Origin: an uncultured Bacilli bacterium
GTDB lineage: Bacteria > Bacillota_I > Bacilli_A > RF39 > UBA660
Assembly (NCBI GenBank): GCA_934168205.1
Contig: CAKPMX010000001.1
Coordinates: forward strand, 4,799 to 68,798
Length of the DNA: 64,000 bases
Reading direction: 5' to 3'
Shown: positions 2,126-61,427 of the stretch, piece by piece
Layout of the letters: every line of letters starts with the position of its first letter
How positions within the stretch are numbered: the first letter of the stretch is position 1
Position numbers and translations under genes: made by a program
The notes under the pieces: model-generated
Database searches by the model: none
Told to the model about the DNA's origin: nothing
The model's input: only the letters and a program-made list of their open reading frames with translations

Positions 2126-2743
2126 TTATTTTCCCTTATAAAAATGTGACACAGTCTTTGCAAATTCATATAAAATAATATCACTTTTATTAATTGCAAA
2201 ACCTTTACCTAAAGCTTTACCGCCAATAGTAAGAGCTGCAACTATTGCCGCTACAAATAATCCTGTAAATAATAAGCTCCAATTAAACTGATTAGCCAAA
2301 ATTGTCGCAATAGCTGTAGCGGCTGTACCAGAAATAATTCCACAAACATCACCTACAACATCACAACAAAAGTTAGATACTTTAGAAGCATTCTTCTTAA
2401 ATTTAACAGCAATATCAGCACCTGGTACTTTACGAGAATTCATCGAATGAAAAACTGTCTCATCACTACTAGTAACACTAACACCAATGATATCAAATAA
2501 TATACCTATACCTATAAATAACAAAGTAATAAGTATACCAAAAAACAATGATAAATTAGGTATTGTAACTTGTGAAACGTATGATAAACCAAATGACAAT
2601 GCAAATGCTATTAAAACTATTTTAAGTATCCATTTATACTCTGTTTTCTTTTTACTAATTTTTTCTCTTCTTTTAGTCTCAATGACTAATTCCTTAAATT
2701 CATCTCTTTCTAATTTTTTCTTATCTTTCATATAATACCTCAC
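2126..2743 (-). CDS. oapA: Small 4-TM membrane protein with a DxxxD motif (DVVGD); candidate OLE-associated protein A
   Basis: 205 aa with four predicted TM helices and a DVVGD motif inside TM3. It lies immediately downstream, on the same strand, of a roughly 600-nt ORF-free structured-looking region. Confidence 0.45.
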   Translation of the reverse strand: MRYYMKDKKKLERDEFKELVIETKRREKISKKKTEYKWILKIVLIAFALSFGLSYVSQVTIPNLSLFFGILITLLFIGIGILFDIIGVSVTSSDETVFHSMNSRKVPGADIAVKFKKNASKVSNFCCDVVGDVCGIISGTAATAIATILANQFNWSLLFTGLFVAAIVAALTIGGKALGKGFAINKSDIILYEFAKTVSHFYKGK

Positions 2744-2789
2744 TAATTTATTTATGAAAAAAATAGTATCCTAAAATACTATTTTAAAT

Positions 2790-3400
2790 TACTTAAACTA
2801 ATGGCTATTAACATAGTAAACTTTGAATCTTAGGTCAAGTAGGATTTCCCTCATGTCTATAAATCCGTTACCAGATTTATGGTTCCCCTTTAAAGATATG
2901 AGTATGACGTCACCGTTCATACGACTTGATTACCACTTAGTATCCACTGCAATCCTATGCTAACGGCACTCTAGGAGATTTCCCCACCAATAACACTTTA
3001 TTATTAGTTCTCTTTTGCAACAGCAATTTCATAAAGCAATACTTATTATATTTGGCCAAACATTAATAAGCAAGTTCTTTAATCCCAAGACCATCACTCA
3101 AGACAAGCTACGCTGTACATAACTTTCGCCACAATACAGGTTTTATCCCATTTCGTAATGAGTCCATCAGTTAACACGTATAGGCTCACCACAATAATAG
3201 GTCTCCACAAATACTGGGTCGTTTGTCGTATGCCATTACGAGCGCCCAACATTTTTCATCTCCAGCATCCACCCTAAACTGGGCGTATAAAGCAAACACC
3301 AGAGGTTTCACAGATATGCTCTTATAACGGTTGTTTAATCCCGTCTTCCTAATAAAGTGATTGACTAGAATAATGTGCCATCAATCAGTACATATTATAT
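2790..3400 (-). ncRNA. ole: Candidate OLE (ornate large extremophilic) RNA, about 600 nt
   Basis: 690 nt with no ORF and about 40% GC, against roughly 20% GC in other intergenic regions of this window. The size matches OLE at about 610 nt. It sits directly upstream, on the same strand, of an OapA-like 4-TM DxxxD protein. No tmRNA, RNase P or SRP signature motifs were found. Confidence 0.5.
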
Positions 3401-13244: not shown

Positions 13245-13330
13245 AACACCCTCACCTCATAAACTTATTATATCAATAACAAAATAATAGTCAAGCAAAA
13301 GAAAAGCACTTCATCAAAAGTGCCTTACAA

Positions 13331-13726
13331 TTATTTAATTTCAATAACTTTTTTATTTTCTACTTCTTCTTTTTTAGGAACAGTAATTTTTAAGCATCCA
13401 TTATTGAATTCAGCATCAATTTTATCTTGATCTAAATCTCCAACATAGAATGATCTTTCATACTTACCATAAACCCTTTCACGACGAATATAGTTCTTTT
13501 TCTCATCCTCTTCGTTAACTTCATTCTTTTTCTCTGCTGAAATAGTTAAATAACCATCTTTTGCCTCAACAGAAATATCTTCTTTTGAAAAACCAGGAAC
13601 ATCCATTTCAATATGGTAACTTCCATCTTTTTCATAAATATCGCATTTCATTGTTTGTTCCTTCTTTGTACTTAAGAAATCATCAAAAATATCATCTAAA
13701 TAAAATTTTCTTGGAATTAAATCCAT
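13331..13726 (-). CDS. Hsp20/alpha-crystallin family small heat-shock protein. The start is moved to MDLIPRKF because an RBS (AGGAAG) lies 9 nt upstream of it.
   Basis: Alpha-crystallin domain (DVPGFSKEDISVEAKDGYLTISAEKK). The tabulated start at 13780 would sit inside the operator, so it is unlikely. Confidence 0.85.
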   Translation of the reverse strand: MDLIPRKFYLDDIFDDFLSTKKEQTMKCDIYEKDGSYHIEMDVPGFSKEDISVEAKDGYLTISAEKKNEVNEEDEKKNYIRRERVYGKYERSFYVGDLDQDKIDAEFNNGCLKITVPKKEEVENKKVIEIK

Positions 13727-13740
13727 ACTTATCATCTTCC

Positions 13741-13793
13741 TTTCAATTATTGTTATACCATTATCTTTAGCACTTGTCAATAGAAAGTGCTAA
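13741..13793 (-). promoter_or_regulatory. SigA-type promoter (TTGACA-N17-TATAAC) whose -35 box lies inside a CIRCE-like inverted repeat (TTAGCACTT-N9-AAGTGCTAA); hsp20 promoter and operator
   Basis: Read directly: TTAGCACTTTCTATTGACAAGTGCTAA on the gene strand. The -10 TATAAC sits 17 nt downstream of the TTGACA. Confidence 0.6.
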
Positions 13794-14692: not shown

Positions 14693-17600
14693 TTATCCTA
14701 GCTGATATCTTGCTATATAAGTTTTAACAAATTTAATTACTTTATTATATTCGTTAACTAACTCATCAAAATGTTCATTAACAAAGTTAACATCATTTTC
14801 TTTACTCTTTAACTCATGTTGATAACTAATATCTGCTAACTCCATAAATCCTAAGTACTTACAATCACTCTTTAATGAATGAACTTCAATTGCATAATTT
14901 GGCATATCAGAAGCTTCTTTAAATTGATTAATTCTATCCCATTTAGCTTCTACATCAGCAATAAAGTCACCCATGGTCATATTATACATTTCCATATCGC
15001 CAAGAAGTTCTAATGAGTTGTCCATATTAACACCATGTTCTTTTAAATAAGCGAGCATAGCATCATCACTCTTATCAGTAGCAATTTCAACAGTATCAGT
15101 TGAAACATCATTATTTGAAGCCTCAGTAGTTTCAGGCTTAGCCTCTTCTTTAACCTCAGTAACAGGTGCAACAGGCTTTTCTTCTACCTTGGTTTCTTCT
15201 TTAACTTCAGGCTCTGTAGTAACTTCAGCTTTTTCCTCTACCTTTTCTTCAGGTTTAACATCTTCCTTAGCCTCAGTAACAGGTTCAACAGGCTTTTCTT
15301 CTACCTTAGTTTCTTCTTTAACTTCAGGCTCTGTAGTAGCTTCAGCTTTTTCCTCTACCTTTTCTTCAGGTTGAACCTCTTCCTTAGTCTCAGTAGCAAC
15401 CTCAGGCTTTTCTTCTACCTTAGTTTCTTCTTTAACTTCAGGTTCTGTAGTAACTTCAGCTTTTTCCTCTACCTTTTCTTCAGGTTGAACCTCTTCCTTA
15501 GTCTCAGTAGCAGGTTCAGCAGGTTTTTCTTCTACCTTAGTTTCTTCTTTAACTTCAGGCTCTGTAGTAACTTCAGCTTTTTCCTCTACCTTTTCTTCAG
15601 ATTTAACCTCTTCCTTAACCTCAGGCTTATCTGCAACTACGGGAGTTTCTACTTTTTCTTCAACTTTAGTTTCAACTTCAACAACTGGTTTAACCTCTTC
15701 TTTAACCTCTACTGGTTTTTCTTCAACTACAGCTGGAGACTCAGTCTTAACTTCATTATCTTGATGAGGTTTAACAGTTTCAATATCGATATGTTTGATT
15801 TCTTCAACTACTTTTGAAGGTCTCTCAACTTGTTTATCAACTTTAACTTCAGGCACTACACTAACATTTTCATGATGTGTCTTAACATTATCATCAACTA
15901 TAGTAACAGTTTTATTTTCAAAAAATCTATGTATTATTTTATCCAATTCCTGTGTATTAATAGGCATTGGTAAATAATAATCAAATCCTTCACTTAAATA
16001 TTTTTCTTCCATGCCATTCATAGCATTAGCAGTTAAAGCTATTATTGGTGGAGTTTCATAATCATCTAATCTTCTAAGTATACGAGCAGTTTCAATACCA
16101 TCCATTTCTGGCATCATATGATCTAAGAAAATTATATCATAATGATTACCATACTTATACTTATAAATACAATCTTTACCAGATTGGGCAACATCAACAT
16201 TAAAGTTATACTTCTTAAGTAATCTTTCAGCAACTTTTAAATTAAGTCTACTATCATCAACTACTAAAGCTGTAAAATCTGAACAATCCAAGAAATTTCT
16301 TACTCTTTGAACAGATGTATCTTGAGTAACACTACCTATAGGAGTAGGATCAATAACCTTTAATGGTAAATCAACATAGAAAGTAGTACCTACTTCAAAC
16401 TCACTAGTAAACCAAATCTTACCACCCATCAAATCCACAAACTTTTTAGTAATCACAAGACCTAATCCAGTACCTTCAATTTCTTTTGAAACTGCACTAT
16501 CAAGCCTTGAAAACTTCTCAAATATTTTACCAAAGTCTTCCTTCTTAATACCGTAGCCAGTATCAGAAATCTTAATATGTAAAAGAACGGCATCATTACC
16601 AGTTTTCTCAGGAACTACTGAAAGCTTAATCTTACCAACTTCTGTATACTTAACAGCGTTATTAGTAATATTAAGTAATATCTGATAAATCTTAGTAGAG
16701 TCACCATAAACCTTAGAAGGAATTTGTTCATCCAATTCGATATATAACTTAACTGGATTATTACCAATTCTTGATTCAATAATACTACCAAGTTCCTTAA
16801 CTATCTTCGCAATACTACATTCCTTATTATCCAACGTGTCATTACCAGACTCTATCTTAGATATATCTAAGATATTATTAATTATATCAACAAGGTTAGT
16901 ACCAGCAGTAGCAATACTTTGAATATCATTACGAGCTGTATTCTCATCAAACTTTGGACTATTAAGTAATGAATCAGAAAAACCTATAATTGCATTCATT
17001 GGAGTTCTAATTTCATGAGACATATTCGATAAAAAGTCTGTCTTAGATTTATTAGACTTATCAATATCAGCCTTTAGTCCTTCTATCTCTCTCGCTAAAT
17101 GAATATCCGGGTTTTCTATAATAAAGTATAAGAAGAATACTTGTAATGAACAACAAATTACATATACAGATATATTATTAAACATTACTTGTAAAACTAA
17201 CATAACTAGCATTACAAACATAATCAATGTTATTGCTATTTTTCTTCTCAATGGATATTGTTTATACAAAGTATACGAACATACCAAAACATAAGTACAC
17301 ATACATGTTAAAAATACTAAAACAATATAATCAGCATGACTTGCAATACATTTTATTAAATTGAGATCTATAGTTTCCTTGGGTGCAATAGCATAACCTA
17401 ATAATAATATACAAGTAATAATTAACAAAGCCTTGCTATTTTTACTTTCTCTAAATAATTCGCCAAAGTTGTTATATTGAAGCTTTTGCATATAAACAAC
17501 ACAATATATACAATAAACACCAACCCATAATATAAATGACAGCCAGTGAACAAACTTAACACTAGTAATCAAAAATTCAGAATTGGAATATCCTAAACAT

Positions 17601-17803
17601 AATAAATATATAAATTCTGTAGACAAAATAAATATAACTAAACTTAAAATAATTCTGTATAGTTTACTTCTCAAATCACTTTGTTTTTCCTTTGAAAAAT
17701 AAATAATAGAAAGGAAAATAGTAAACAATAAACAACCAAATGAAAACAATATACTAGTAGAAAGATTTTCTGCTAAACTAAATACATCCTTCATTTTCCA
17801 CAC
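14693..17803 (-). CDS. Unorthodox hybrid sensor histidine kinase: polytopic sensor, HisKA, HATPase, REC, a long repetitive EK-rich linker and a C-terminal HPt domain
   Basis: H-box SHEIRTPMNAI, G-box DTGYGI, receiver domain (FLDHMMPEMDG), and an HPt-like HSLKSDCKYLG near the C-terminus. Confidence 0.85.
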   Translation of the reverse strand: MWKMKDVFSLAENLSTSILFSFGCLLFTIFLSIIYFSKEKQSDLRSKLYRIILSLVIFILSTEFIYLLCLGYSNSEFLITSVKFVHWLSFILWVGVYCIYCVVYMQKLQYNNFGELFRESKNSKALLIITCILLLGYAIAPKETIDLNLIKCIASHADYIVLVFLTCMCTYVLVCSYTLYKQYPLRRKIAITLIMFVMLVMLVLQVMFNNISVYVICCSLQVFFLYFIIENPDIHLAREIEGLKADIDKSNKSKTDFLSNMSHEIRTPMNAIIGFSDSLLNSPKFDENTARNDIQSIATAGTNLVDIINNILDISKIESGNDTLDNKECSIAKIVKELGSIIESRIGNNPVKLYIELDEQIPSKVYGDSTKIYQILLNITNNAVKYTEVGKIKLSVVPEKTGNDAVLLHIKISDTGYGIKKEDFGKIFEKFSRLDSAVSKEIEGTGLGLVITKKFVDLMGGKIWFTSEFEVGTTFYVDLPLKVIDPTPIGSVTQDTSVQRVRNFLDCSDFTALVVDDSRLNLKVAERLLKKYNFNVDVAQSGKDCIYKYKYGNHYDIIFLDHMMPEMDGIETARILRRLDDYETPPIIALTANAMNGMEEKYLSEGFDYYLPMPINTQELDKIIHRFFENKTVTIVDDNVKTHHENVSVVPEVKVDKQVERPSKVVEEIKHIDIETVKPHQDNEVKTESPAVVEEKPVEVKEEVKPVVEVETKVEEKVETPVVADKPEVKEEVKSEEKVEEKAEVTTEPEVKEETKVEEKPAEPATETKEEVQPEEKVEEKAEVTTEPEVKEETKVEEKPEVATETKEEVQPEEKVEEKAEATTEPEVKEETKVEEKPVEPVTEAKEDVKPEEKVEEKAEVTTEPEVKEETKVEEKPVAPVTEVKEEAKPETTEASNNDVSTDTVEIATDKSDDAMLAYLKEHGVNMDNSLELLGDMEMYNMTMGDFIADVEAKWDRINQFKEASDMPNYAIEVHSLKSDCKYLGFMELADISYQHELKSKENDVNFVNEHFDELVNEYNKVIKFVKTYIARYQLG
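15174..15640. repeat. About four tandem 117-bp repeats (one unit is 114 bp), in frame within the hybrid kinase and encoding a 39-aa E/K/V/T-rich repeat
   Basis: Unit starts at 15174, 15291, 15405 and 15522, each beginning ggcttttcttctacctt. Identity is near-perfect. Confidence 0.85.
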
Positions 17804-17810
17804 TCCCTTT

Positions 17811-19667
17811 CTAATTATTCAAATACTTTTCAAGTATTTTGTGTAAATCTTTATATTTAAATGGTTTTGCTAAGTAATCAGTAAATCCTTCACTAACATA
17901 TCTATCTCTAGAACCTGAATATGAATTAGCTGTTAAAGCAATAATAGGAAGTGCACATCCATCATCACGTAGTATATGTACCGTAGCAATACCATCTAAT
18001 TCTGGCATCATATGATCTAAGAAAATTATGTCATAATGATTTCTCTTAACTAAATCAATACAGTCTCTACCATTAGAAGCACTGCTTAACTCTAAATTAA
18101 ATTGTCCTAACAAACGCATTGCTAATTTAACATTAACTGCATTATCATCAACAATTAAAGCCTTTTTACCAGTTAAATCTAATAGTTTCTTTTCAACAAC
18201 ATTAGAATTGTCAATTGATACAGCACCAATTTTCATATCATCAATAACATCTTGGTCAATACTTATAAGATATCTAGTACCTTTACCTTTTTCATTTCTA
18301 AAATCAATTGATCCACCAAGTATTTCAATAAGTCTTTTAGCAACAATCAAACCAAGTTTAATACTATCAGTACCTATTGTAGAACCTTCTTCAGAAAAAT
18401 CTTCAAAACTTCTATTAAATTCACTTTCAGTCATTTCATGACCTGTATTAGCAATAATCAAACTAAGTTTAAATGTTTCACCAACGTATGCACCACCAAC
18501 ATCAAGTGATACACTACCAAATTTAGTATGACTAATTGCGTTAGCTAAAATATTTACTAAAATCTTAAATAGCTTATCAGAATCACCCTTATACTTAGTA
18601 GGAATATTTCCATCTACATTAATCTTAAAGTCTAAAACATCTCTACTTACTTTTGAAACTATAACACTGTTAACTTCAAATAATAAGTCTTCAATTTTAT
18701 ATTCTTTTACATCGACTGTCTCCTTACCAGATTCAATTCTAGATATATCCAAAATATTATTAATTAATTCAAGTAAATCAGCACTAGCCTCTTTAATATC
18801 TTTTGTATCTCTTTTAACAATATCTTCAGTCAAATGTTTCTCTTCTAACATAGCTTGACTAAATCCTAAAATTGTATTCATTGGAGTCCTAATCTCATGA
18901 GAAATACTTGATAAGAAATCACTCTTTGCTTGATTTGCCTTTTCAGCCTCTTGTCTACTTTCTTCTGCCTGAGATAATAATCTAGTATCCTGACTTTCAA
19001 CTGTAAAATACATTGCGATAAGTAAGTAAGCATATAAGAAATAAATATAATTAACTCTATAATTAAAGAAAATAAATTCCAAACCTGTGATAACTACAAA
19101 TGATATACCAAAGAAAATAATTGGAAGATTTAATTCTTTAGGTTTAGTTTTTCTATACCTTAACATCATTATCAGTATCGCAATTGATCCAATACCACCT
19201 AAAGCATACACCGGATATAATGCGGGTCCACCAATGACAAGATAATTAGGATTAACTGCCGAATGGAACGTTACATTTAATGCACAAGATAATATGTAAA
19301 CCAAGGAATCAAAAATAATTAATACTATCCCCAAAATCCTACGCGTTTTTACATATGCACCAATGATATTAGAATCTACTGTAACAGCATAAATATAAAC
19401 AAGAACAATAGTCATCCAAACAATATCAGCTAAAATATGAAGTCTACATACAACCTCCGTAAGAATAGGATGCTGGTTAATAGTAACAATAGACCAAATA
19501 CAACCTATTTCAATAAAGCCTAGTATTGCTAAAGATACAACTAAAATTTTAAACAACAAAGTCGTTAAACGACCTTCTATATTAGCTCTCTTTTTCCAAA
19601 AATATAAACATAAAATAACAATTGAATAACATAATCCAACTATTCCTAATGCTGAACTAAAAATCAT
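17811..19667 (-). CDS. Hybrid sensor histidine kinase (polytopic sensor, HisKA, HATPase, REC)
   Basis: H-box SHEIRTPMNTI, HATPase motifs, and a C-terminal receiver with FLDHMMPELDG. Confidence 0.85.
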   Translation of the reverse strand: MIFSSALGIVGLCYSIVILCLYFWKKRANIEGRLTTLLFKILVVSLAILGFIEIGCIWSIVTINQHPILTEVVCRLHILADIVWMTIVLVYIYAVTVDSNIIGAYVKTRRILGIVLIIFDSLVYILSCALNVTFHSAVNPNYLVIGGPALYPVYALGGIGSIAILIMMLRYRKTKPKELNLPIIFFGISFVVITGLEFIFFNYRVNYIYFLYAYLLIAMYFTVESQDTRLLSQAEESRQEAEKANQAKSDFLSSISHEIRTPMNTILGFSQAMLEEKHLTEDIVKRDTKDIKEASADLLELINNILDISRIESGKETVDVKEYKIEDLLFEVNSVIVSKVSRDVLDFKINVDGNIPTKYKGDSDKLFKILVNILANAISHTKFGSVSLDVGGAYVGETFKLSLIIANTGHEMTESEFNRSFEDFSEEGSTIGTDSIKLGLIVAKRLIEILGGSIDFRNEKGKGTRYLISIDQDVIDDMKIGAVSIDNSNVVEKKLLDLTGKKALIVDDNAVNVKLAMRLLGQFNLELSSASNGRDCIDLVKRNHYDIIFLDHMMPELDGIATVHILRDDGCALPIIALTANSYSGSRDRYVSEGFTDYLAKPFKYKDLHKILEKYLNN

Positions 19668-22154: not shown

Positions 22155-22240
22155 CCTCCTATTCTTAATATATTATAACTTAAAATCACATAAAAAAAAA
22201 GGACAAAAGAAACAAATTTTCTCTTATCCAAATAATCAAA

Positions 22241-23455
22241 TTATATTAAATCATCATTCCTAGAAACATCATTAACTGGATTAGGAACATTAGTTAAAGA
22301 AGCAGGTTCTACTCCATTATTAACACCTTCAGATTGAACAGATGTAACAGGTACTTCAACACTAGACCCAGTACTAGGCATAACAGTATTAGCATTAACT
22401 GTATTGTTCATAGTAACATCATTATTAAATCCTGTGCTGGTACTCGTATTCATATTGCTCATATTATTCATGCTGTTTACACTATTAACATTATTCATAT
22501 TATTATTTGTCTCTGTAGGCATCACTGTAACACCAGTATTATTTATTGGAAAATTATTTCCAAACATATCTTGAGGTCCATTTGTTGGATTTACCATATT
22601 ATTATTAGTATTCATATTAGTAACACCAGTAACATTTTTCTTTTTTTTCTTCATAAAGAATATTACACCAATTGCTATTAAAGCAATTACTATAACAACA
22701 AGAATTGCTATATTACTTATATTATACACAGGAAAATCTAGCTTAATATCAGAATCATCATTTTGATATAAATTCATAAGATTCCAAGTTAAATGCTTAT
22801 CACCATCTTTTTCACTAGTAGCGTTACTACTAATTGCCTTATATGGAAGTTTAACTTCAAACTTCAAATCCATGCCCTTCATAGCTGTAGTATAGTCTAT
22901 ATCAGATGAATCAAATAAATCATCACTATCATCGTCATCATCATAATAATAGTCATCATCATCATAGTCATGATCATCGTCATCATCATAATCATCATCA
23001 AGCCTATAACTATCATCACCAGACATTAAATCATCAGAAGATGAACTCGAATCAATTTTCAATGTATAAATATTCTTAAAAAATCCTTTTTTTACTTGAA
23101 ATAATTTAACATTTTCATCTGTTAAAATTTCTTCCACATCAACTTCTTCAATTGCTCCTTCACTACTTAAATCATCAATATTTGGAAATTTACATAAAAT
23201 ACTTGCTCCAACCATATTTGATTCATTATAATCAGATACAGAACAATACTTATTCTTAACTTCATCCTTCAAACTAGAAATATCAGAATCATCACCATCA
23301 GTATTCATACTTTCATCAACTGCTACAATCATGCTGAAATCCATAGATTTGTCTTTCTTTATATCCATAGTCATATTATACTTAACACAACCAGTAGACA
23401 ACATCAACATAACAGCAATTAATAATAATTTAAATGTTTTAAAATTTTTTTTCAT
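22241..23455 (-). CDS. Lipoprotein (LSTGC lipobox) with a poly-Asp/Tyr acidic tract, one TM helix and an Asn-rich C-terminal tail
   Basis: Start moved to MKKNFKTF because an AGGAG RBS lies 6 nt upstream. The lipobox, a DDDDDHDYDDDDYYYDDDDD tract and the TM helix ILVVIVIALIAIGVIFF are all readable. Confidence 0.5.
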   Translation of the reverse strand: MKKNFKTFKLLLIAVMLMLSTGCVKYNMTMDIKKDKSMDFSMIVAVDESMNTDGDDSDISSLKDEVKNKYCSVSDYNESNMVGASILCKFPNIDDLSSEGAIEEVDVEEILTDENVKLFQVKKGFFKNIYTLKIDSSSSSDDLMSGDDSYRLDDDYDDDDDHDYDDDDYYYDDDDDSDDLFDSSDIDYTTAMKGMDLKFEVKLPYKAISSNATSEKDGDKHLTWNLMNLYQNDDSDIKLDFPVYNISNIAILVVIVIALIAIGVIFFMKKKKKNVTGVTNMNTNNNMVNPTNGPQDMFGNNFPINNTGVTVMPTETNNNMNNVNSVNSMNNMSNMNTSTSTGFNNDVTMNNTVNANTVMPSTGSSVEVPVTSVQSEGVNNGVEPASLTNVPNPVNDVSRNDDLI

Positions 23456-23538
23456 AATACACTCCTCTACTTTACTAAAAGTATAAAACATTTTAAATGA
23501 AAAGTAAAACAAAAAAAGAGAAATTTCTCTCTCTTTAC

Positions 23539-25419
23539 TTATTTAGAAATAACTTCACAAATTAAAGTGCTTATCTCTGTTGGATTTTCAATAGGAAGTC
23601 CAGCTATCATCTTAGCTTCTGCATAAAGTATCTTTGTATATTTGTCAAATTCTTCTTTATCATTTTCATATAAATACTTTAATTTTTCAGCGATTTGATG
23701 TTTCTCATTTATTTCTAATACTTTTTCAGCTTTAATACCCATGTCATTAGGCATAGCGTCAAATACTTTTTGCATTTCAATAGAAACATCACCTTTAGTA
23801 GTTAAACATACAGGATGTTTTTTTAATTTATTACTAAATTTAACTTCACTAACATCTCCTATTTCTTCCTTCATACGTTTTAAAAGTTCACTATTATCTT
23901 CATTAGCCTTCTTAATAGCGTCTTTTTCTTCTTCTGTTTCTAAACTTAAATCTTCACTCTCAACATTAGCAAACTTTTTACCATCATATTCTTGTATAGC
24001 TGTAATAGCGAACTCATCAACATAATCAGTTAAATATAATATATCATAGTCATGATCTTTAACTTGTTCTACTTGAGGAAGTGAATCAATTTTAGTAACA
24101 GATGCTCCTGCTGCATAATAAATTTTTTCTTGTCCTTCCTTCATATTATCAACATATTCTTTTAAAGTAATAAGTTTTTCCTCTTTAGCTGAATAAAACA
24201 TAATTAAATCTTTTAACTTATCTTTATCAGCACCAAAGTTATTATAAACACCATATTTTAATTGAACACCAAATGTCTTAAAAAATGAAATATAATTTTC
24301 ACGATCACTTTTTAACATTTCTTCTAATTCTTTACGAATCTTACTTTCAATATTTTTAGCAATTAATTTTAAATTATGACTTTCTTGTAATACCTCTCTA
24401 GAAATATTTAATGATAAGTCTTCACTATCAACCACGCCTTTAACAAAACTAAAGTAATCTGGTAACAAGTCAGCACACTTTTCCATTATCATAACGCCAT
24501 TTGCATATAAACTAAGACCCTTTTCGTAATCCTGTGTATAAAAATCATATGGTGCATGACTTGGTATAAATAATAATGATTTATATGAACACATTCCTTC
24601 AACTGAAGAAGTAATTATTTTTAATGGTTTATCATAGTCATTAAACTTATCCATATAGAAGTTTTCATAATCAGCATCTTCTACTTCACTCTTACTCTTC
24701 TTCCATATTGGAACCATACTATTTAATGTTTCTACTTCTTTTTTATCTTCATACTCATGTTTCTTCTCATCTTTTAATTCATGATGAGTAACTTCCATCT
24801 TAATAGGAAAACTTATATAATCAGAATATTTTTTAACTAATCCTTTAATTTGATATTCATCTAAATACTTACAATAATCTTCCTCATCTGTATCTTCTTT
24901 AATATGTAATACTATCTTAGTACCAATATCACTCTTCTTAGCTTTCTTAATAGTATAACCATCTGCTCCTTCACTTTCCCAAGTATAAGCTTCATCACTA
25001 TCAATTGATTTAGAGGTAACCGTTATTTTATCACTAACCATAAAAGCTGAATAAAAACCAACACCAAATTGACCTATCATATTAGTCTTTTCCTCATTAC
25101 TCATATTTTCTTTAAAAGAAAGTGTTCCTGATTTAGCAATAGTACCTAAATTATTTTCTAATTCATCTTTTGTCATACCACAACCAGTATCAGTAATAGT
25201 AAGAGTACGTTTATCATTATCAATATCTAAACGTATATATAAGTCATCTTTCTTTACCTTAACATTTTTATCAGTTAAAGAACGATAATATAACTTATCT
25301 AGTGCATCTGATGCATTAGAAATTAACTCTCTTAAAAATATATCTTTATTAGTATAAATTGAATTAATCATTAAATCTAAAAGTCTCTTAGATTCAGATT
25401 TAAATTCATGTTTTTCCAT
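23539..25419 (-). CDS. htpG: Molecular chaperone HtpG (Hsp90 family)
   Basis: N-terminal GHKL ATPase motifs (ELISNASDALDK, GQFGVGFYS). 626 aa. Confidence 0.9.
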   Translation of the reverse strand: MEKHEFKSESKRLLDLMINSIYTNKDIFLRELISNASDALDKLYYRSLTDKNVKVKKDDLYIRLDIDNDKRTLTITDTGCGMTKDELENNLGTIAKSGTLSFKENMSNEEKTNMIGQFGVGFYSAFMVSDKITVTSKSIDSDEAYTWESEGADGYTIKKAKKSDIGTKIVLHIKEDTDEEDYCKYLDEYQIKGLVKKYSDYISFPIKMEVTHHELKDEKKHEYEDKKEVETLNSMVPIWKKSKSEVEDADYENFYMDKFNDYDKPLKIITSSVEGMCSYKSLLFIPSHAPYDFYTQDYEKGLSLYANGVMIMEKCADLLPDYFSFVKGVVDSEDLSLNISREVLQESHNLKLIAKNIESKIRKELEEMLKSDRENYISFFKTFGVQLKYGVYNNFGADKDKLKDLIMFYSAKEEKLITLKEYVDNMKEGQEKIYYAAGASVTKIDSLPQVEQVKDHDYDILYLTDYVDEFAITAIQEYDGKKFANVESEDLSLETEEEKDAIKKANEDNSELLKRMKEEIGDVSEVKFSNKLKKHPVCLTTKGDVSIEMQKVFDAMPNDMGIKAEKVLEINEKHQIAEKLKYLYENDKEEFDKYTKILYAEAKMIAGLPIENPTEISTLICEVISK

Positions 25420-25434: not shown

Positions 25435-25483
25435 CATTTTACTTATAACACTATTTTTAGCAGTTGTCAATAATGAGTGCCAA
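25435..25483 (-). promoter_or_regulatory. Promoter TTGACA-N17-TATAAG with an overlapping CIRCE-like inverted repeat (TTGGCACTC-N9-AACTGCTAA); htpG promoter and operator
   Basis: Read directly. It has the same architecture and the same distance to the start codon (about 38 nt) as the hsp20 and clpB sites. Confidence 0.5.
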
Positions 25484-25558: not shown

Positions 25559-26050
25559 ATGTATAAAATAAATGACTATCTAGTCTATGGAAAAGACGTA
25601 TGTAAAGTATATGAAATAAATGAAAAAAGATTTAATAATACAGATTACTATTTATTAAAACCAATTAAAGATTCATCTTTAAAAATTGAAGTACCAGTAA
25701 CATCTAATAAAATAAGACCTGTAATAACAAAAGAAGAATTAACCAAAATAATAAAAGAAATTCCAAGTATTAAACCTATCGAAGCAAATGATAAATTCAT
25801 TGAAAATGAATATAAAAGATTATTATCAACACCAACTCATGAAAATTTAATAAGAATCATTAAAACAACTTATTTACGAAACAAGGAAAGATTAGAAAAT
25901 AATAAAAAGGTAGCTGAAAAAGATAAAAGCTACTTTGAACTAGCAGAAGAATATTTATACAATGAATTTTCTGTAGTATTAGGATACACTTTTGAAGAAA
26001 CAAAAGCTTATGTAATAAATGAAGTATTACAAAATGAAAAAAAGCGGTAA
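25559..26050 (+). CDS. CarD/CdnL/TRCF-domain family transcription factor
   Basis: An N-terminal RNAP-interacting fold (YLVYGKDVCKVYEINEKRF...YYLLKP) followed by a helical C-terminus. Confidence 0.65.
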   Translation: MYKINDYLVYGKDVCKVYEINEKRFNNTDYYLLKPIKDSSLKIEVPVTSNKIRPVITKEELTKIIKEIPSIKPIEANDKFIENEYKRLLSTPTHENLIRIIKTTYLRNKERLENNKKVAEKDKSYFELAEEYLYNEFSVVLGYTFEETKAYVINEVLQNEKKR

Positions 26051-39152: not shown

Positions 39153-39217
39153 ATCACATCCTACTCTAAAAAAATTATAACATACAAAATAAAATTTTAC
39201 ACAAAAAAGAAGGATAA

Positions 39218-41329
39218 TTACTTATCCTCCGTTTGAAGAACATATTGATCATTTTTATAATCAACAAAAACTGTATTATTAGGTTTAACTTTACCTTCAA
39301 TAATCATTCTAGCAAGCAATGTCTCAATAGTACGACTTACTAATCTTTTTAAAGGTCTAGCTCCATAATTAATATCATAACCTTCTTCTATTAATTGACT
39401 TCTTGCTTTATCACTTAAAGCTATTTTTATATTAACATCGCTTAAACGTTTTTCAATATCAGCAAGTATTTTATCAAGTATAGAGTTAATTGCTTCTTTT
39501 GACAATGGATCAAATACAATAATTTCATCAATTCTGTTAATGAACTCTGGTCTAAAATAACTTCTAACTTCATCCATTACTTTAGAAGAATCTCCATTTA
39601 AAATATGTTCACTACCCAAATTAGATGTCATTATAATAATTGTATTTTTAAAGTCAACTGTACGACCATTAGAATCAGTAATTCTACCATCATCTAGTAC
39701 TTGTAAAAGTAAGTTTAAAACTTCTGGATGAGCTTTTTCAATTTCATCAAATAAAACTATACTATATGGATTACGTCTAACAGCTTCTGTTAATTGTCCT
39801 CCTTCTTCATATCCAACATATCCTGGAGGAGAACCAATTAATCTAGACACACTAAACTTCTCCATATATTCACTCATATCAATTCTAATCATATGAGACT
39901 CATCATCAAATAACTCATAAGCTAAAGTTCTTGCTATTTCTGTTTTACCAACACCAGTAGGCCCTAAAAACATAAATGACGCTATTGGTCTATTAGGATC
40001 TTTTATACCAGCACGTGACTTAATAATTGCATCACTTACAAGTTTTATAGCTTTGTCTTGACCCTTGACACGTTTTTTCATATTTTCATCTAACGCTAAA
40101 AGCTTTTCTTTTTCACTACTTACAAGTTTCGCAACTGGAATATTAGTCCATTTAGCAATAACACCTGCTATATCATCACTAGTAACAGTATCACTTAATA
40201 TTTTATTTTTCTCTGTATTATTTAACTCTTCCAACTCTTTTTCAAGTCTTGGAATTTCACCATGTCTAAGTACTGCCGCTCTTTCCAAGTCATATTTATT
40301 TTCAGCTTGATCAAGTTCAAACTTAGCTTCTTCTATCTCAGCTTTTTTCTTCTTAATATCACTATTTAAGTTCTTTTCTTTATTCCAAGCCTCAGTTAAT
40401 TCTTTTTCTTTTAATTGTAATTTTTCAACTTCAGCATCAATTTCTTCTCTACGTTTCTTAGAAATTTCATCTTTTTCTTTTTTTATAGCTTCTCTTTCTA
40501 TTTGTAAACGCATAATTTTATGAGTCAAATTATCCAAATTAACTGGAACTGAATCCATTTGTACTCTAATAGTAGCACAAGCTTCATCTACTAAATCAAT
40601 TGCCTTATCTGGCAAATAACGATCTGTAATATAACGATTAGATAAAGTAGCAGCAGAAACTAAAGCCTTATCTTGAATAGAAACACCATGATGTATTTCA
40701 AATCTTTCTTTCAAACCACGTAAAATCGTAATAGTATCCTCAACTGTAGGTTCAGACACTTTAATCTTTTGAAAACGTCTTTCTAGTGCACCATCTTTTT
40801 CAATATATTGACGATACTCATTTAAAGTAGTAGCACCAATTACATGAATTTCTCCACGAGCAAGCATAGGTTTCAAAATATTAGAAGTATCCATTGCTCC
40901 TTCAGTTCTACCAGTACCAACAATCATATGTATTTCATCAATAAACATGATTATATCGCCTTCGCTTTTTTTAACTTCGTTTAACACTTTCTTTAAACGT
41001 TCCTCAAATTCACCACGATATTTAGCACCAGCTACTAAAGCAGCCATATCAAGTTCCCATATAGTTTTATTCTTTAAACTAGAAGGAACATCTCCTTTAA
41101 TAATTCTTAAAGCAAGTCCTTCAACTATTGCTGTTTTACCAACACCTGGTTCACCTATTAAAACTGGATTGTTTTTTGTTTTTCTTGATAATACTCTAGT
41201 GATACTACGTATTTCTTCATCTCTACCAATAACTGGATCAATTTTACCCTTTTTAGCGGCTTCAGTTATATCACGACCATATTTTTCTAATACATTTTCG
41301 TCTTGTTCTTCTTGATAATTATTATACAT
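39218..41329 (-). CDS. clpB: ClpB-type AAA+ disaggregase lacking the N-terminal substrate-binding domain (D1, coiled-coil M-domain, D2)
   Basis: Two Walker A motifs ([18 protein letters not shown]) and a long coiled-coil M-domain. The protein starts right at the D1 region, and an RBS plus the promoter and operator lie immediately upstream, so no N-domain can be encoded there. Confidence 0.85.
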
Positions 41330-41352: not shown

Positions 41353-41394
41353 ATTTTACACCAATTTTTAGCACTTGTCAATATAGAGTGCTAA
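41353..41394 (-). promoter_or_regulatory. SigA-type promoter TTGACA-N17-TAAAAT with a CIRCE element (TTAGCACTC-N9-AAGTGCTAA) overlapping the -35 box; clpB promoter and operator
   Basis: Read directly. The left arm matches the CIRCE consensus exactly and the right arm differs at one position. It lies 39 nt upstream of the clpB start. Confidence 0.65.
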
Positions 41395-41434
41395 TAATTA
41401 AAAATAATAAAACGTAAGTTGTCTTACGCCATAT

Positions 41435-43006
41435 TTATTCATCAGTTTTAACTAATTCTTTATACTCTCCAACAGTACTTTTATTACTACCATCACTTCT
41501 AATCTCATCCATTACTCTACTTTGCCAATTACCTCTATGAATTACTCTTTTACATTGTCCACTTTCAATTAATTCTCTCTTACTTAATTGTGATAACCTA
41601 TGGAAATCATCTGAATCCATAATATATATTGCATCCCCTGTAGAAACCCTACCAGTATTAGCATTTTCAAAATACTTTTCTAATACTATTTTTCCATTAG
41701 AATGTACATAAGCAACATATCCATCAAAAGTATTTAATCCTCTAAGTGTACACACTGGATCAGAAGATTCATGAAAAGTCTTCTTCTCTAAATAAAGTTC
41801 AGTTAAATGTTCACGATAGCGAGCCTTTTCTTCTTCACTCATTTCTCTTGTTTTTCTACTAATACTATTAGTAAATGCTTCATCTAAAGTCTTACCATCA
41901 GGTATCATTTCCCAATTAGCAGATAAATCTTTTAAATAATCTTTCATAAATTCTTCTACTTCATTAGGACTCATAGTAGAAAAATCATAACTGTTAAGAG
42001 TTACTGTCTTTAACTCTGGATAATTAATTAATAATTGTTTATATCTTTCTTTTAATGACTTAGGTGTCACAACATAGCCGTCTTTATTAGGAATACCAGG
42101 TATAGTAGATTTAAATTCATCAACAACTATTTCTAAGTCACTATCAACTTTATCACCTAATCCTAAAAGATAATTAGAAACATAAAATAAATATCTTTGT
42201 TTAGACTCAGGAGATACGCTTTCTGCATATTGTAAATGTTGATGAGCAACATAAAGCTCAAATCTACTCATGTCTTCTTTATCTAAAGAAGATAAATCAA
42301 CTGGATGTTCACGTAAAAAATCCATAACATCATCAAGATTATCAATCATATATGCAAGTATATCTGCACAAGCATTAGCGTATATTGCCGGATTCAATTT
42401 AATATCAGCTAATTTTAAAAATCTATCTACACTTTTTTTATCACCAAGACTTGCTACTAAATCTTCTTGTAATAGTCTTTTTTGCGCAAAAGTAAGCTTT
42501 GGACTTGTCAAATATTCTTTAACTTCCTTAGCTCTTTTTTGATCTCTTAAAGCTCTCTCATATGCTTGATATATAAATGGGAAATTCTTAGACAATTTTT
42601 TATCAGTAGACACCATTCTCAAATTAGCAACAAACCTCTTACAACCAGTTTCTTCATCTAATAAGAAATCATTTAAATCCTCTCCATCTAAAAATCTACC
42701 ATCATGTTCTTTAGTAATATTTAAATTATAAATAATTGTAGAAACAATTGCTGTAACAGAAAAACATAACTTTTTACTAATATTTTCCTTATCCTGTACT
42801 ATACCTAAAGTTTGAAATATTTGCATATTTGGATAATAATCTACTTTACTAGCCAAAAAATCCATAAATTCTTCCAAAGATTTATTAAGAGCAATTTTTA
42901 TTCTTTTCTTATTACTACATAAATTTAAAAGATCTCTTGATAACAAAGTAACAGGTGTATTGACAGGTATACCTTTATTAATTACTTCATCTACATTTTC
43001 TAACAT
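41435..43006 (-). CDS. Hypothetical 523-aa cytoplasmic protein
   Basis: Long ORF with no recognisable motif. It ends in a hairpin terminator (cgtaagttgtcttacg) before the clpB promoter. Confidence 0.45.
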   Translation of the reverse strand: MLENVDEVINKGIPVNTPVTLLSRDLLNLCSNKKRIKIALNKSLEEFMDFLASKVDYYPNMQIFQTLGIVQDKENISKKLCFSVTAIVSTIIYNLNITKEHDGRFLDGEDLNDFLLDEETGCKRFVANLRMVSTDKKLSKNFPFIYQAYERALRDQKRAKEVKEYLTSPKLTFAQKRLLQEDLVASLGDKKSVDRFLKLADIKLNPAIYANACADILAYMIDNLDDVMDFLREHPVDLSSLDKEDMSRFELYVAHQHLQYAESVSPESKQRYLFYVSNYLLGLGDKVDSDLEIVVDEFKSTIPGIPNKDGYVVTPKSLKERYKQLLINYPELKTVTLNSYDFSTMSPNEVEEFMKDYLKDLSANWEMIPDGKTLDEAFTNSISRKTREMSEEEKARYREHLTELYLEKKTFHESSDPVCTLRGLNTFDGYVAYVHSNGKIVLEKYFENANTGRVSTGDAIYIMDSDDFHRLSQLSKRELIESGQCKRVIHRGNWQSRVMDEIRSDGSNKSTVGEYKELVKTDE

Positions 43007-43299: not shown

Positions 43300-44530
43300 A
43301 AATTATATAATACACAAAAAACAATCACAAGCAAAATTGAACTTTTTTTTGCAAGAAAATATTTCCTGTTTACATAGACCTCAAGAAAAAATGATTCCTT
43401 CTATTATTTTTGGAATGATTATGAGCGAATCTGTTGTTACCCAAGATATTGCCAGAATTTTAAAAGATGATTTTTCTTTAGTTCAATTAGATTCCGTTTC
43501 TAGAAGAATTAGAAGACTCCTTAATAACAGTAGATTTGATGGCTACCTATTTTATAAAGAAACTATTACTCATGTTATTAACAATTATAAAATTAAACAT
43601 TCTTCTAACACAGTTCATCTAACAATTGATCACATGTATTCTAAGGAAAATTATACTGTACTTTTTGTCTCAATAAGAGTTGGCAAACAAGGAATTCCTA
43701 TTTATTTTGAATGTTTTAAAGGCATTAAAAATCCAGAAGCATTTTATGATAGAACCGTCATAAAAGCAATAGATTATGTTTTTGATTTATTTAAAAACAA
43801 AAATCTAAATATTATTTTTCTGGCTGATCGCTGGTTTTCCAAAAAAGTATTTGAACACATTGATAAGTTAGGAGCAACTTATTGTTTTAGACTTAAAAGC
43901 AATTTAAAAATTTCTGTTTATGATAAAAACGAAGGACATTATATAAGAAAATATACTGGTGATTTACTTTCTTGGAAACACCATTCTATTTACTATAATG
44001 ATGTCAATATGTATGAAGAATTAAATTATAAAACCAATATCGTGATTAGTAGAAAATGTTGTACTGACGAACCTTGGATCATTGCGACAAATGGTGAAGC
44101 AAAAGAATCTATTAGACACTATTCACACAGATTTGGCTCAATAGAAAGTGTTTTTAAAAATCAGAAATCAAATAGATTTTATCTAGAAGATATTTGCACT
44201 GCATCCTTAACTTCTTTCATTAATTTATACTCTTTAGTTTGTTTTTCAACGTTATTTTTAACTATTGTTGGAACAGATTATTCCAAAAATTCTAGATGTT
44301 ACAAAAATGTAAAAATTACAGCACATAAAACATATAAAAATAAAGGTAAAATAAGAGTTATGTCATTATTTAATACAGGACTAACATTCTTCAAATTAGC
44401 ATTTAATTCTTATAAATATATAAGGATTCCATTTAGATTAATTTTATACGACATATAATTTCATCAATTCATAATAAGCTTAAATTTCATTTATGAATGA
44501 AATCCTTTTTGTGTGTTCAAAATTTCAAAC
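43300..44530 (+). mobile_element. IS4-family insertion sequence; boundaries are approximate
   Basis: It carries a single DDE transposase gene. Short imperfect terminal matches appear (TACACAAAAA on the left, and TTTTTGTGTGTTC on the right, which gives GAACACACAAAAA when reverse-complemented). Confidence 0.5.
43337..44458 (+). CDS. IS4-family DDE transposase
   Basis: DDE residues (FLADRWF and others) and the C-terminal Y-x2-R-x3-E-x6-K motif (HYSHRFGSIESVFKNQK). Confidence 0.7.
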   Translation: MNFFLQENISCLHRPQEKMIPSIIFGMIMSESVVTQDIARILKDDFSLVQLDSVSRRIRRLLNNSRFDGYLFYKETITHVINNYKIKHSSNTVHLTIDHMYSKENYTVLFVSIRVGKQGIPIYFECFKGIKNPEAFYDRTVIKAIDYVFDLFKNKNLNIIFLADRWFSKKVFEHIDKLGATYCFRLKSNLKISVYDKNEGHYIRKYTGDLLSWKHHSIYYNDVNMYEELNYKTNIVISRKCCTDEPWIIATNGEAKESIRHYSHRFGSIESVFKNQKSNRFYLEDICTASLTSFINLYSLVCFSTLFLTIVGTDYSKNSRCYKNVKITAHKTYKNKGKIRVMSLFNTGLTFFKLAFNSYKYIRIPFRLILYDI

Positions 44531-53780: not shown

Positions 53781-53857
53781 TGGGGCGTCGTAAGGGAATC
53801 GAACCCTTGCATACTAGTGCCACAAACTAGCGTGTTAACCACTTCACCAACGGCGCC
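53781..53857 (-). tRNA. tRNA-His (GUG) with the 5' G-1 and an encoded CCA
   Basis: Manual fold: anticodon arm CUAGU-UUGUGGC-ACUAG, T-arm AAGGG-UUCGAUU-CCCUU, the extra 5' G pairing with discriminator C, and a 3' CCA. One C·A mismatch falls at acceptor position 4:69. Confidence 0.85.
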
Positions 53858-53981: not shown

Positions 53982-54410
53982 ATGTATAATTATAATTATG
54001 ATACTTGGTATCAAAATATGATGAGAAACTCTAATAGTAACAATAATATGACCGCTAGTTCTTTATTTACACCCGAAGTTGCCTATAATAATGGAAATTT
54101 ATTTTCTAATCTATATAGCCAATATAAAAGTTATAGGCCAACACAACTATCAGCTAATACTGAAAAAGAAAAATTACTATTAGATATTGGGAGATTAGCT
54201 TTTGCGGCTCATGATTTAAATTTATACTTAGATTTAAATCCTAATGATGAAACTATGCTTACTCTATTTAATGATTATAGAAAACAAGCAGATAGTATGA
54301 TTAGTGAATATGAATCAAAATTTGGACCATTGAACATTAGCAGTAACAGTTTAGAAACAGGTCCATTTAAATGGATTAATAGTCCATGGCCTTGGGAGGT
54401 GATGAAGTAA
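53982..54410 (+). CDS. cotJB: Spore coat protein CotJB
   Basis: LLLDIGRLAFAAHDLNLYLDLNPND...FNDYRK signature. A strong RBS precedes it, and its stop overlaps the cotJC start (TAATG). Confidence 0.75.
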   Translation: MYNYNYDTWYQNMMRNSNSNNNMTASSLFTPEVAYNNGNLFSNLYSQYKSYRPTQLSANTEKEKLLLDIGRLAFAAHDLNLYLDLNPNDETMLTLFNDYRKQADSMISEYESKFGPLNISSNSLETGPFKWINSPWPWEVMK

Positions 54411-55078
54411 TGTTTAGTTACAATAAAAGATTACAATATCCAGTTGACATCAAGAAAAAAGATTTAAAAATGGCTAAATATCTAGTAACACAATATGGCG
54501 GTTCAAATGGCGAGCTAGCAGCGTCACTTCGTTACTTGAATCAAAGATTTACCATGCCTGATGATAAAGGAAAAGCTCTTCTTACTGATATAGGTACAGA
54601 AGAACTTGCTCATGTTGAAATGATTTCAACAATGATTTATCAATTAATGAAAGATGCTACTTTAGCTGAAATAAAAGAAGCGGGACTTGATACTCATTAC
54701 GCCGAACATGCCAAAGCCTTATATCCAACTGATGCCTCTGGTAATCCTTTTACAGTAGCCTACTTTGCCTCAACTGGTGATCCATTAGCGGATTTATCAG
54801 AAGACATGGCTGCCGAACAAAAAGCACGTGCCGTATATGAAAACTTAATAGATTTAACTAATGACCCAGATGTTATAGGACCATTACTATGGCTAAGACA
54901 AAGAGAAATAGTTCACTACACTAGATTTAAAGAACTATTTGAATACTATGAAAAACAACTAAATAACAACATAAATAATCTTAATACTAACAATAATATG
55001 AATAATCAAATTATAAATGGAATGCCTAATAATCAATTAAATAGTCAATACATAAACCAATATGGACAGATAATGTAA
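54410..55078 (+). CDS. cotJC: Spore coat protein CotJC (manganese-catalase family)
   Basis: The start is set at MFSYNKRLQYP because a GGGAGG RBS precedes it. Di-metal catalase motifs (EELAHVEMI) and an N-rich C-terminal tail. Confidence 0.85.
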   Translation: MFSYNKRLQYPVDIKKKDLKMAKYLVTQYGGSNGELAASLRYLNQRFTMPDDKGKALLTDIGTEELAHVEMISTMIYQLMKDATLAEIKEAGLDTHYAEHAKALYPTDASGNPFTVAYFASTGDPLADLSEDMAAEQKARAVYENLIDLTNDPDVIGPLLWLRQREIVHYTRFKELFEYYEKQLNNNINNLNTNNNMNNQIINGMPNNQLNSQYINQYGQIM

Positions 55079-59438: not shown

Positions 59439-61190
59439 CTACTCGACAGTAACACTTTTAGCTAAGTTCTTAGGCTTATCAATATCACAACCTCTTAGTT
59501 TAGCAACTTCATATGCAATTAACTGTAAACAAGCTACAACTAACATAGGTTGTAAAAACTCATCTATCTTAGGTACACAAATTAAATAATCACAATCAGT
59601 CTCTTCTTTGTTACTAATAATTATTGTAACAGCACCTCTTGCTTTAACTTCACAAACATTAGAAATAGTTTTATCTCTAATATCTTCATCTGTAATAATC
59701 GCAAAAACCGGTGTACCTTTATCTATCAAAGAAATAGTTCCATGTTTTAATTCTCCAGCTTGATAAGCTTCACTATGTATATAAGAAACTTCTTTTAATT
59801 TTAAACTACCTTCTAACGATATAGCGTAATCTATTTTTCTACCTATGAAGAAAATATCCTCACGTTTATATATCTTTTTAGCTATTTTTAGATACATTTC
59901 TCTTCTATCAATTACTTCTTTTAAAAGTCTAGGTAATAATTTTAAATCATTTACTATATCCTTTTTACCAGCAACTCTAGCACTTAATAAAGCCATAATC
60001 GCAACTTGTAAAATATATGCTTTAGTAGTCGCAACAGCTATTTCTGGACCAGCTTCTATAAATATTTGTTGATCAGATTCACGAGCTATAGTTGAACCTT
60101 TTACATTAACTATTGCTAGAGTCAAAGCTCCATGTTCTTTTGCTTTTCTCATAGCGGCAATAGTATCAGCAGTTTCTCCAGACTGAGAAATAACTATAAC
60201 AATTGTCTTTCTATCATATAAAACTTTCTTATAACGATATTCACTCGCAACTTCACAAGTAACTCTAATATTTGAATGTTCTTCTAATAAAGTCTTACCT
60301 ATCATTCCAGCATACATTGCTGAGCCACAGGCTACTATATGAATTTCTTCATAACTACTTAAATCAGGAATTTTATCAAAATCATCTAAAAATGGTTTAA
60401 TAGTCTTTTCAAGTACAATTGGCTCTTCCATTATTTCTTTTAACATATAATGTTCATAACCATTTTTTTCTCTATCTTCTGCTGTTAAATCTGTAACTAA
60501 AATTTCTTTCTTAATTTTTTTGCCATTTTTAGTAACTTTAATTCCATCAAAATCTAAAACAGCTATTTCATTTTCCTCAAGTAAAGAATATTTATTTGTA
60601 TATTTAATAATTGCACTTATATCAGAAGCTATAAAAAATTCTTTATTACCATAGCCAATAATCAATGGTAAATCTTTTCTAACTGCAAATAATTTATCTT
60701 GATCTTCAAAAATAATTGCTAAAGCATAAGAACCTTTAACGTCTTTAATAGCTTTTTCTATTGCTAAAACAGGATCACCATCATAATAATAATTAATTAA
60801 AGCTGTCATTACTTCTGAATCAGTATCACTATTAAACTTAACTCCTTCTTTAAGTAATCTTTCTTTAAGTTCGCTAAAGTTTTCTATAATACCATTATGA
60901 ACTAATGTAACTTTACCAGATTTATGAGGATGTGCATTAGCCTCATTTGGCTCTCCATGAGTAGCCCATCTAGTATGAGCAATACCCATATTAGCTTTAA
61001 TAACATCCATATTATTAATTTTTTCTTCTAAACAAGATATTCTTCCTAAACCACGAATAACTTGTACTTGACTATCATTTCTTAGAGCTATACCAGCTGA
61101 ATCATACCCTCTATACTCTAAGTTTTTAAGTCCTTCCAATAAAATATTTTTCGGTTCTTTTGAACCTATATAACCTACAATTCCACACAT
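59439..61190 (-). CDS. glmS: Glutamine--fructose-6-phosphate aminotransferase
   Basis: MCGIVGY N-terminal nucleophile, two SIS domains and a C-terminal SVTVE. Confidence 0.95.
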   Translation of the reverse strand: MCGIVGYIGSKEPKNILLEGLKNLEYRGYDSAGIALRNDSQVQVIRGLGRISCLEEKINNMDVIKANMGIAHTRWATHGEPNEANAHPHKSGKVTLVHNGIIENFSELKERLLKEGVKFNSDTDSEVMTALINYYYDGDPVLAIEKAIKDVKGSYALAIIFEDQDKLFAVRKDLPLIIGYGNKEFFIASDISAIIKYTNKYSLLEENEIAVLDFDGIKVTKNGKKIKKEILVTDLTAEDREKNGYEHYMLKEIMEEPIVLEKTIKPFLDDFDKIPDLSSYEEIHIVACGSAMYAGMIGKTLLEEHSNIRVTCEVASEYRYKKVLYDRKTIVIVISQSGETADTIAAMRKAKEHGALTLAIVNVKGSTIARESDQQIFIEAGPEIAVATTKAYILQVAIMALLSARVAGKKDIVNDLKLLPRLLKEVIDRREMYLKIAKKIYKREDIFFIGRKIDYAISLEGSLKLKEVSYIHSEAYQAGELKHGTISLIDKGTPVFAIITDEDIRDKTISNVCEVKARGAVTIIISNKEETDCDYLICVPKIDEFLQPMLVVACLQLIAYEVAKLRGCDIDKPKNLAKSVTVE

Positions 61191-61360: not shown

Positions 61361-61427
61361 TCAATACAACCTTTCTACATTCATTCTAATAATATTATAC
61401 TAAAAAAAAAGAAGTTTGTAACCTCTT

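Follow-up and report, generated by a model that had tools for sequence, protein, structure and literature searches.

Putative HrcA operators with a built-in -35 element upstream of hsp20, htpG and clpB in an uncultured human-gut Bacilli bacterium

We analysed a stretch of 64 kb (hereafter the window; 28% GC). It lies on a scaffold that measures 612 kb or more and belongs to a metagenome-assembled genome (MAG) of an uncultured Bacilli bacterium from the human gut. Exact-protein look-ups placed the same species in further human-gut assemblies. Its nearest relatives are MAGs labelled as uncultured Bacilli, Tenericutes or Mollicutes bacterium or as CAG; the named genera are Bacilli incertae sedis. 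Genes for FemAB, MurJ, GlmS and CotJB/CotJC indicate a walled member of the Bacillota, and since TGA stops four of 43 long ORFs, the standard genetic code is apparently in use. The window carries three chaperone genes, hsp20, htpG and clpB, all on the minus strand and each preceded by a CIRCE-type inverted repeat (Table 1). The ClpB alignment spans positions 147–852 of the family profile, so the protein lacks the N-domain; a start at position 147 is also seen in Mollicutes, and the same short form occurs throughout the clade of related MAGs. Terminator-like hairpins behind hsp20 and clpB suggest that both genes are monocistronic. In case of htpG, a further ORF follows at a distance of 26 nt and a terminator-like site was found solely past this ORF, and therefore both genes (22241–25419) are probably co-transcribed.

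Table 1. Features of the window. Positions refer to the 64-kb window; sequences are written in gene orientation.
Feature	Position	Strand	Details
hsp20 operator, CIRCE-type	13767-13793	-	TTAGCACTT-TCTATTGAC-AAGTGCTAA; arms 9/9 complementary; 2 mismatches to canonical CIRCE
hsp20 -35 (predicted)	13775-13780	-	TTGACA; inside CIRCE
hsp20 -10 (predicted)	13752-13757	-	TATAAC; TGG just before; 17 nt past -35
hsp20	13331-13726	-	131 aa; alpha-crystallin small heat-shock protein; PF00011 (HSP20)
Terminator-like hairpin after hsp20	13303-13326
htpG operator, CIRCE-type, weaker	25457-25483	-	TTGGCACTC-ATTATTGAC-AACTGCTAA; arms 6/9 complementary; 3 mismatches
htpG -35 (predicted)	25465-25470	-	TTGACA; inside CIRCE
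htpG -10 (predicted)	25442-25447	-	TATAAG; TGT just before; 17 nt past -35
htpG	23539-25419	-	626 aa; HtpG profile 676 bits, cut-off 371
ORF downstream of htpG	22241-23512	-	423 aa; weak LppM domain
Terminator-like site past the 423-aa ORF	22201-22229
clpB operator, CIRCE-type	41368-41394	-	TTAGCACTC-TATATTGAC-AAGTGCTAA; arms 8/9 complementary; 1 mismatch to canonical CIRCE
clpB -35 (predicted)	41376-41381	-	TTGACA; inside CIRCE
clpB -10 (predicted)	41353-41358	-	TAAAAT; 17 nt past -35; promoter scan 11/12 matches
clpB	39218-41329	-	703 aa; NCBIfam TIGR03346
Terminator-like hairpin after clpB	39209-39230
Terminator-like hairpin of the gene upstream of clpB (41435-43006)	41411-41430	-
Hybrid histidine kinases (two) and Hpt protein	14693-19667	-	HisKA, HATPase, receiver
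ORF divergent from htpG	25559-26050	+	163 aa; CarD/TRCF domain, PF02559, 22.8 bits, cut-off 23
OLE RNA	2785-3397	-	Rfam RF01071; 387 bits; E 5e-110
ORF directly downstream of OLE RNA	2126-2743	-	205 aa; no Pfam match
DDE transposase	43337-44458	+
tRNA	53784-53856	-
CotJB and manganese catalase (CotJC-like)	53982-55078	+
glmS ribozyme/riboswitch	61214-61363	-	RF00234; 69.5 bits
glmS	59439-61190	-

The surroundings of these genes hold further features. Two large hybrid histidine kinases and an Hpt protein are encoded between hsp20 and htpG, and the gene divergent from htpG specifies a protein with a borderline RNA-polymerase-interacting domain. The OLE RNA (Ornate Large Extremophilic), found here in a low-GC gut Bacilli MAG, is full-length, and the ORF behind it may code for its partner protein OapA. 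The genes for CotJB and a manganese catalase form a pair associated with the spore coat, here in a gut bacterium that is reduced and related to Mollicutes. The glmS ribozyme lies upstream of glmS, and a tRNA gene and a transposase gene complete the list.

Each of the three repeats comprises 27 nt with a spacer of exactly 9 nt. The first-pass annotation had described them as the CIRCE consensus with small deviations, and this is borne out by the mismatch counts relative to the canonical sequence, TTAGCACTC-N9-GAGTGCTAA. Its formula for the left arm, TTAGCACT(C/T) at all three sites, does not hold at htpG, where the arm reads TTGGCACTC. The htpG operator is also the weakest of the three because its arms pair at only six of nine positions, and we regard it as a borderline CIRCE. 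The remainder of the proposed architecture was recovered at all three sites: every spacer contains TATTGAC, the last five spacer bases and the initial base of the right arm make up a TTGACA hexamer, and a -10 hexamer follows exactly 17 nt later. Since this -35 hexamer is built into the repeat, the right arm at hsp20 and clpB is AAGTGCTAA rather than GAGTGCTAA. The operators thus overlap the -35 elements of predicted sigma-A-type promoters of the form TTGACA-17-TATAAC (hsp20), TTGACA-17-TATAAG (htpG) and TTGACA-17-TAAAAT (clpB). The gap between operator and ATG measures 40 nt at hsp20 (ATG 13726), 37 nt at htpG (ATG 25419) and 38 nt at clpB (ATG 41329), and the -10 lies 22–25 nt upstream of the ATG with a Shine-Dalgarno sequence in between. 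At hsp20 and htpG, the -10 hexamer does not end in the usual T and follows a TGn motif (TGGTATAAC and TGTTATAAG, respectively); owing to the missing T, a generic promoter scan reported the clpB promoter only. An Rfam scan of the three leaders returned no known RNA element.

When the window was searched with the pattern TTAGCACT-N11-AGTGCTAA, allowing up to three mismatches, exactly three matches were obtained, namely the sites upstream of hsp20, htpG and clpB. Shuffled sequences yielded 0.5 matches on average, and none of 100 shuffles reached three. These data bear on the possibility that the sites have no specific regulatory role and stem from a mobile or repetitive promoter cassette or are chance palindromes. 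The three copies are indeed alike in motif, spacing and Shine-Dalgarno-like sequences. However, there are just three of them in 64 kb, each next to a chaperone gene, the three regions differ outside the functional elements, and the module keeps to these gene families in other genomes as well (see below). Moreover, the chance expectation for 22 fixed bases is far below one match, and among 2.9 million viral contigs in IMG/VR only three carry the module (L206–L208). In two of these it lies upstream of hsp20 or short clpB, while L206 has no clear ORF behind it; the former two are probably host flanks or misclassified bacterial contigs. On the grounds of copy number, chaperone-only placement, shuffles and scarcity in viral contigs, a repeat element or chance origin was rejected, and we hold it to be extremely improbable.

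Control by CtsR was considered as well. The CtsR regulon (class III) comprises clp genes, joined in some Bacilli by sHSP genes, and its operator is a direct heptad repeat. The tandem heptad (A/G)GTCAAA-NAN-(A/G)GTCAAA occurs on neither strand of the window, which contains a lone GGTCAAA heptad. CtsR control of the three genes was rejected because no CtsR box is present in the window.

To assess conservation, one genome per GTDB species was scanned for the exact pattern TTAGCACT-N5-TTGACAAGTGCTAA, and the module was found in at least 120 genomes, mostly related low-GC gut MAGs (median GC 28%). In the 120 loci studied, conservation of the arms and of the -35 follows by construction from the search; independent evidence comes only from the -10, from the spacing and from the identity of the genes. 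The -10, which is not part of the search pattern, lies 16–17 nt past the -35 in 115 of the 120 loci listed and reads TATAAT in 68 and TATAAC in 14 of them. Among the matches listed, the first downstream gene codes for Hsp20 in 50 cases, short ClpB in 50, HrcA in eight, HtpG in six, GroES in one and a DnaJ-like protein in one. The closest HtpG relative among these matches (L018) carries the exact pattern upstream of its gene. Relaxed scans of the same loci, in which the sites are not motif-selected, added htpG in L064, L073 and L112 and lon in L116; the HrcA, GroES and Lon identities in the related loci were confirmed above curated cut-offs. Judging from these genomes, the module extends across a lineage of low-GC, uncultured gut Bacilli that is related to Mollicutes.

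Two Campylobacterota MAGs, L011 (Arcobacteraceae) and L083 (Campylobacteraceae), likewise have the exact module in front of hsp20-like genes, and L011 has an extra CIRCE-like repeat just upstream of it. Four hsp20 loci (L036, L039, L081, L116) possess unusually long leaders of about 100 nt after the module, which share the stretch GGTATTAAAATTATATTTnTGTGCTACC. These leaders could represent an RNA thermometer or another leader element; an Rfam scan of three of them (L036, L039, L081) gave no match.

The promoter geometry is relevant for a second alternative, according to which transcription starts upstream of the repeat. CIRCE would then coincide with or follow +1, the arrangement known from B. 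subtilis, and would affect formation of the open complex or promoter escape and possibly mRNA stability, the TTGACA being incidental. The AT-rich DNA upstream of the hsp20 site does contain promoter-like sequences on the gene strand that match at 9 of 12 positions, e.g. at 13823–13796, but their number is not clearly above that in shuffles (17 versus 11.5 +/- 3.2). Recurrence of a TTGACA-17-TATAAT-like geometry across nearly all related loci speaks against this possibility, and at clpB the hairpin of the upstream gene, which would shield the clpB promoter from read-through, lies just 17 nt from the operator. In addition, a start mapped in Mollicutes puts CIRCE upstream of the -10 (PMC12597100). 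We therefore judge an upstream start to be quite unlikely.

A view of clpB that is not biased by the motif was provided by a protein search with ClpB over metagenome contigs, which retrieved 80 distant clpB loci (55–68% identity) and reflects clpB in general rather than the close clade. CIRCE with at most three mismatches was detected upstream of clpB in about 29 of the 75 loci with enough upstream sequence, and about 20 of these 29 embed TTGACA or TTGACG. Thus, clpB under a CIRCE that covers the -35 is widespread, and the arrangement is not a peculiarity of one genome. Most of the embedding loci employ a second register, TTAGCACTC-N5-TTGA-CAGTGCTAA, which is shifted by one base relative to that of the window and has a -10-like hexamer 17 nt on (L132, L133, L140, L142, L148, L149, L157, L165, L170, L173 and others). 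These loci mostly have 38–51% GC and full-length ClpB; L127, L177, L178 and L186 have 29–36% GC. The three short ClpBs in the sample, from contigs of low or moderate GC, all come with a -35-embedded CIRCE, two in the register of the window and L127 in the second one.

A link of the module to HrcA is provided by the relatives. All eight hrcA genes located behind it encode proteins scoring above the TIGR00331 cut-off, and hrcA behind this operator is the classical arrangement expected for autoregulation. In one MAG (CAVKAO01) the module precedes both hrcA (L014) and short clpB (L024). Seven of nine hrcA/groES promoters (L003, L006, L014, L026, L027, L062, L102) have an additional CIRCE past the -10 and ahead of the ribosome-binding site, versus none of 106 pattern-selected hsp20/clpB/htpG promoters; elsewhere, such two-operator promoters occur at clpB in L150, L170, L177 and L178 and at htpG in L064 and L073. 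The HrcA proteins of the related loci are mostly 26–44% identical to each other, with two close pairs at 70% and 82%. Matches to GrpE, DnaK, DnaJ, GroES and GroEL over all loci were confined to the hrcA and groES loci, apart from DnaJ- or DnaK-like genes beside a few clpB loci, i.e. L040, which has a full dnaJ near clpB in an operon that starts beyond the 8 kb covered, and five metagenome loci.

Within the window, tblastn with the GrpE, DnaK, DnaJ, GroES and GroEL proteins of the relatives gave no match, and Pfam/NCBIfam searches of most ORFs of at least 100 aa detected no hrcA, groES/EL or dnaK. Using eight HrcA queries, tblastn found no hrcA in the window and the roughly 15 kb of flanks by which exact-protein look-ups extended its ends, together about 79 kb of the scaffold. 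A protein search with the HrcA of L014 gave 3,931 matches, and none of the best 120 (64–96% identical) lies on this scaffold. The open-access literature yielded no paper linking RF39-type Bacilli with HrcA.

It could hence be argued that hrcA has been lost and that the repeats are remnants or serve a different regulator, the three promoters being effectively constitutive or controlled in some other way. The lack of hrcA in the readable 79 kb and the already degenerate htpG site fit this idea, as does the gradual decay of CIRCE sites described for Spiroplasma melliferum (PMC5138195). On the other hand, the nearly perfect complementarity of the arms at hsp20 and clpB is unexpected without selection in DNA of such low GC content, relatives with the same module carry hrcA behind it, and in Mollicutes HrcA is the most conserved transcription factor (PMC5138195). 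We consider this reading very unlikely.

We favor the reading, at a probability of roughly 80%, that the three sites are HrcA operators (CIRCE) fused to sigma-A-type promoters and that HrcA represses these by occluding the -35. As long as the temperature is normal, a dimer of HrcA bound to the repeat would keep sigma region 4 off the -35 and thereby block binding of RNA polymerase at hsp20, at clpB and at htpG, probably including the ORF behind the latter. Upon heat or protein-folding stress, HrcA would lose its DNA binding, either being heat-labile itself or through titration of GroEL, and a near-consensus promoter would be exposed. The repeat covers positions -48 to -22, approximately, relative to the predicted start, with its dyad centred on the -35; for this reason, bound HrcA should exclude sigma-A/RNA polymerase. 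As the operator lies upstream of the predicted start and would thus be outside the mRNA, the role that the B. subtilis CIRCE is known to play at the level of mRNA presumably cannot apply. That repression is purely steric, as the first-pass annotation had it, is deduced from the operator position. Against this reading, the -10 hexamers of hsp20 and htpG depart from the consensus at the conserved final T, and the htpG site exceeds the maximum of two mismatches seen in functional CIRCE elements of M. gallisepticum (PMC5138195); this degenerate operator is probably leakier.

Beyond the model Bacilli, a CIRCE with built-in -35 may even reflect a rule of promoter design that holds for Bacillota in general and has so far escaped description, a generalization that we put forward tentatively and that is somewhat less likely to hold than to fail. 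It would comprise two registers, TTGAC-AAGTGCTAA in low-GC Bacilli and relatives of Mollicutes and TTGA-CAGTGCTAA in higher-GC, Clostridia-like genomes, always with the -10 about 17 nt on. A single operator would serve the disaggregation set (sHSP, ClpB, HtpG, Lon), and a second operator past the -10 would be added at hrcA-dnaK and groESL. If true, the HrcA regulon would be two-tiered, the tiers differing in repression strength or induction threshold.

Taken together, the data suggest that abundant uncultured Bacilli of the human gut run protein repair mainly via HrcA, with hsp20, clpB and htpG, and lon in relatives, as probable targets, and probably not via CtsR. With about 60 bp and a near-consensus promoter, the module is compact and could serve as a heat-inducible switch; the Mollicute version is already so used.

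In B. subtilis, CIRCE lies at the transcription start or past it and forms part of the mRNA, and it is known to target only dnaK and groESL. The system described here resembles this class I regulon (hrcA-grpE-dnaK-dnaJ, groESL) in the consensus of the repeat and presumably in the repressor, and the relatives appear to autoregulate hrcA via CIRCE likewise. It differs in that the operator covers the -35 and in its predicted targets, hsp20, htpG and clpB. The B. subtilis htpG gene belongs to class IV (PMC3408451), and by analogy with B. subtilis, papers on clostridia still assign clpB to class III and htpG to class IV (PMC3408451, PMC3806222). The present findings caution against transferring the class I/III/IV scheme to other Bacillota; CIRCE at clpB is common in metagenomic Firmicutes.

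Lactobacilli offer another parallel: a small heat-shock protein gene (hsp3 of L. plantarum) and clpL of L. gasseri have been assigned to HrcA (PMC6503756), so that genes for an sHSP and for a Clp ATPase are under CIRCE/HrcA rather than CtsR, as proposed here. A difference is that these lactobacilli keep CtsR alongside HrcA. Overlap of the operator with core promoter elements is shared with H. pylori, where HrcA sites are arranged in this manner and repress by hindrance (PMC6032397). However, the H. pylori operators are only CIRCE-like, act jointly with HspR and control groESL and hrcA-grpE-dnaK.

A further related system is the regulon of Mollicutes, which lack CtsR and in which clpB, lon and dnaK are known to be governed by HrcA/CIRCE (PMC4245973, PMC5138195, PMC12597100). 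In M. feriruminatoris, TTAGCACTT-N9-AAGTGCTAA is located just upstream of the Pribnow boxes of lon and clpB and provides a working heat switch (PMC12597100). The window shares with M. gallisepticum, M. genitalium and M. feriruminatoris a CIRCE at clpB (at lon in relatives) and the lack of visible CtsR boxes. The arm variant is the same, with inner changes from C to T and from G to A, the operator directly precedes the -10 and is not placed in the leader, and ClpB has no N-domain. The rewired heat-shock regulon proposed at the outset would hold with respect to B. subtilis only; HrcA control of clpB and lon is the published norm in Mollicutes, and that of sHSP and clpL genes was already reported from lactobacilli. 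In contrast to Mollicutes, whose promoters have largely lost the -35, a consensus TTGACA is kept inside the repeat here, hsp20 and htpG are predicted targets as well, and the organism has cell-wall genes and apparently uses the standard code. Hence, this is an extension of a known system and not a new mechanism; what it adds is the clean consensus -35 retained within the repeat and the regular occurrence of hsp20 and htpG among the probable targets throughout a large clade of uncultured bacteria.
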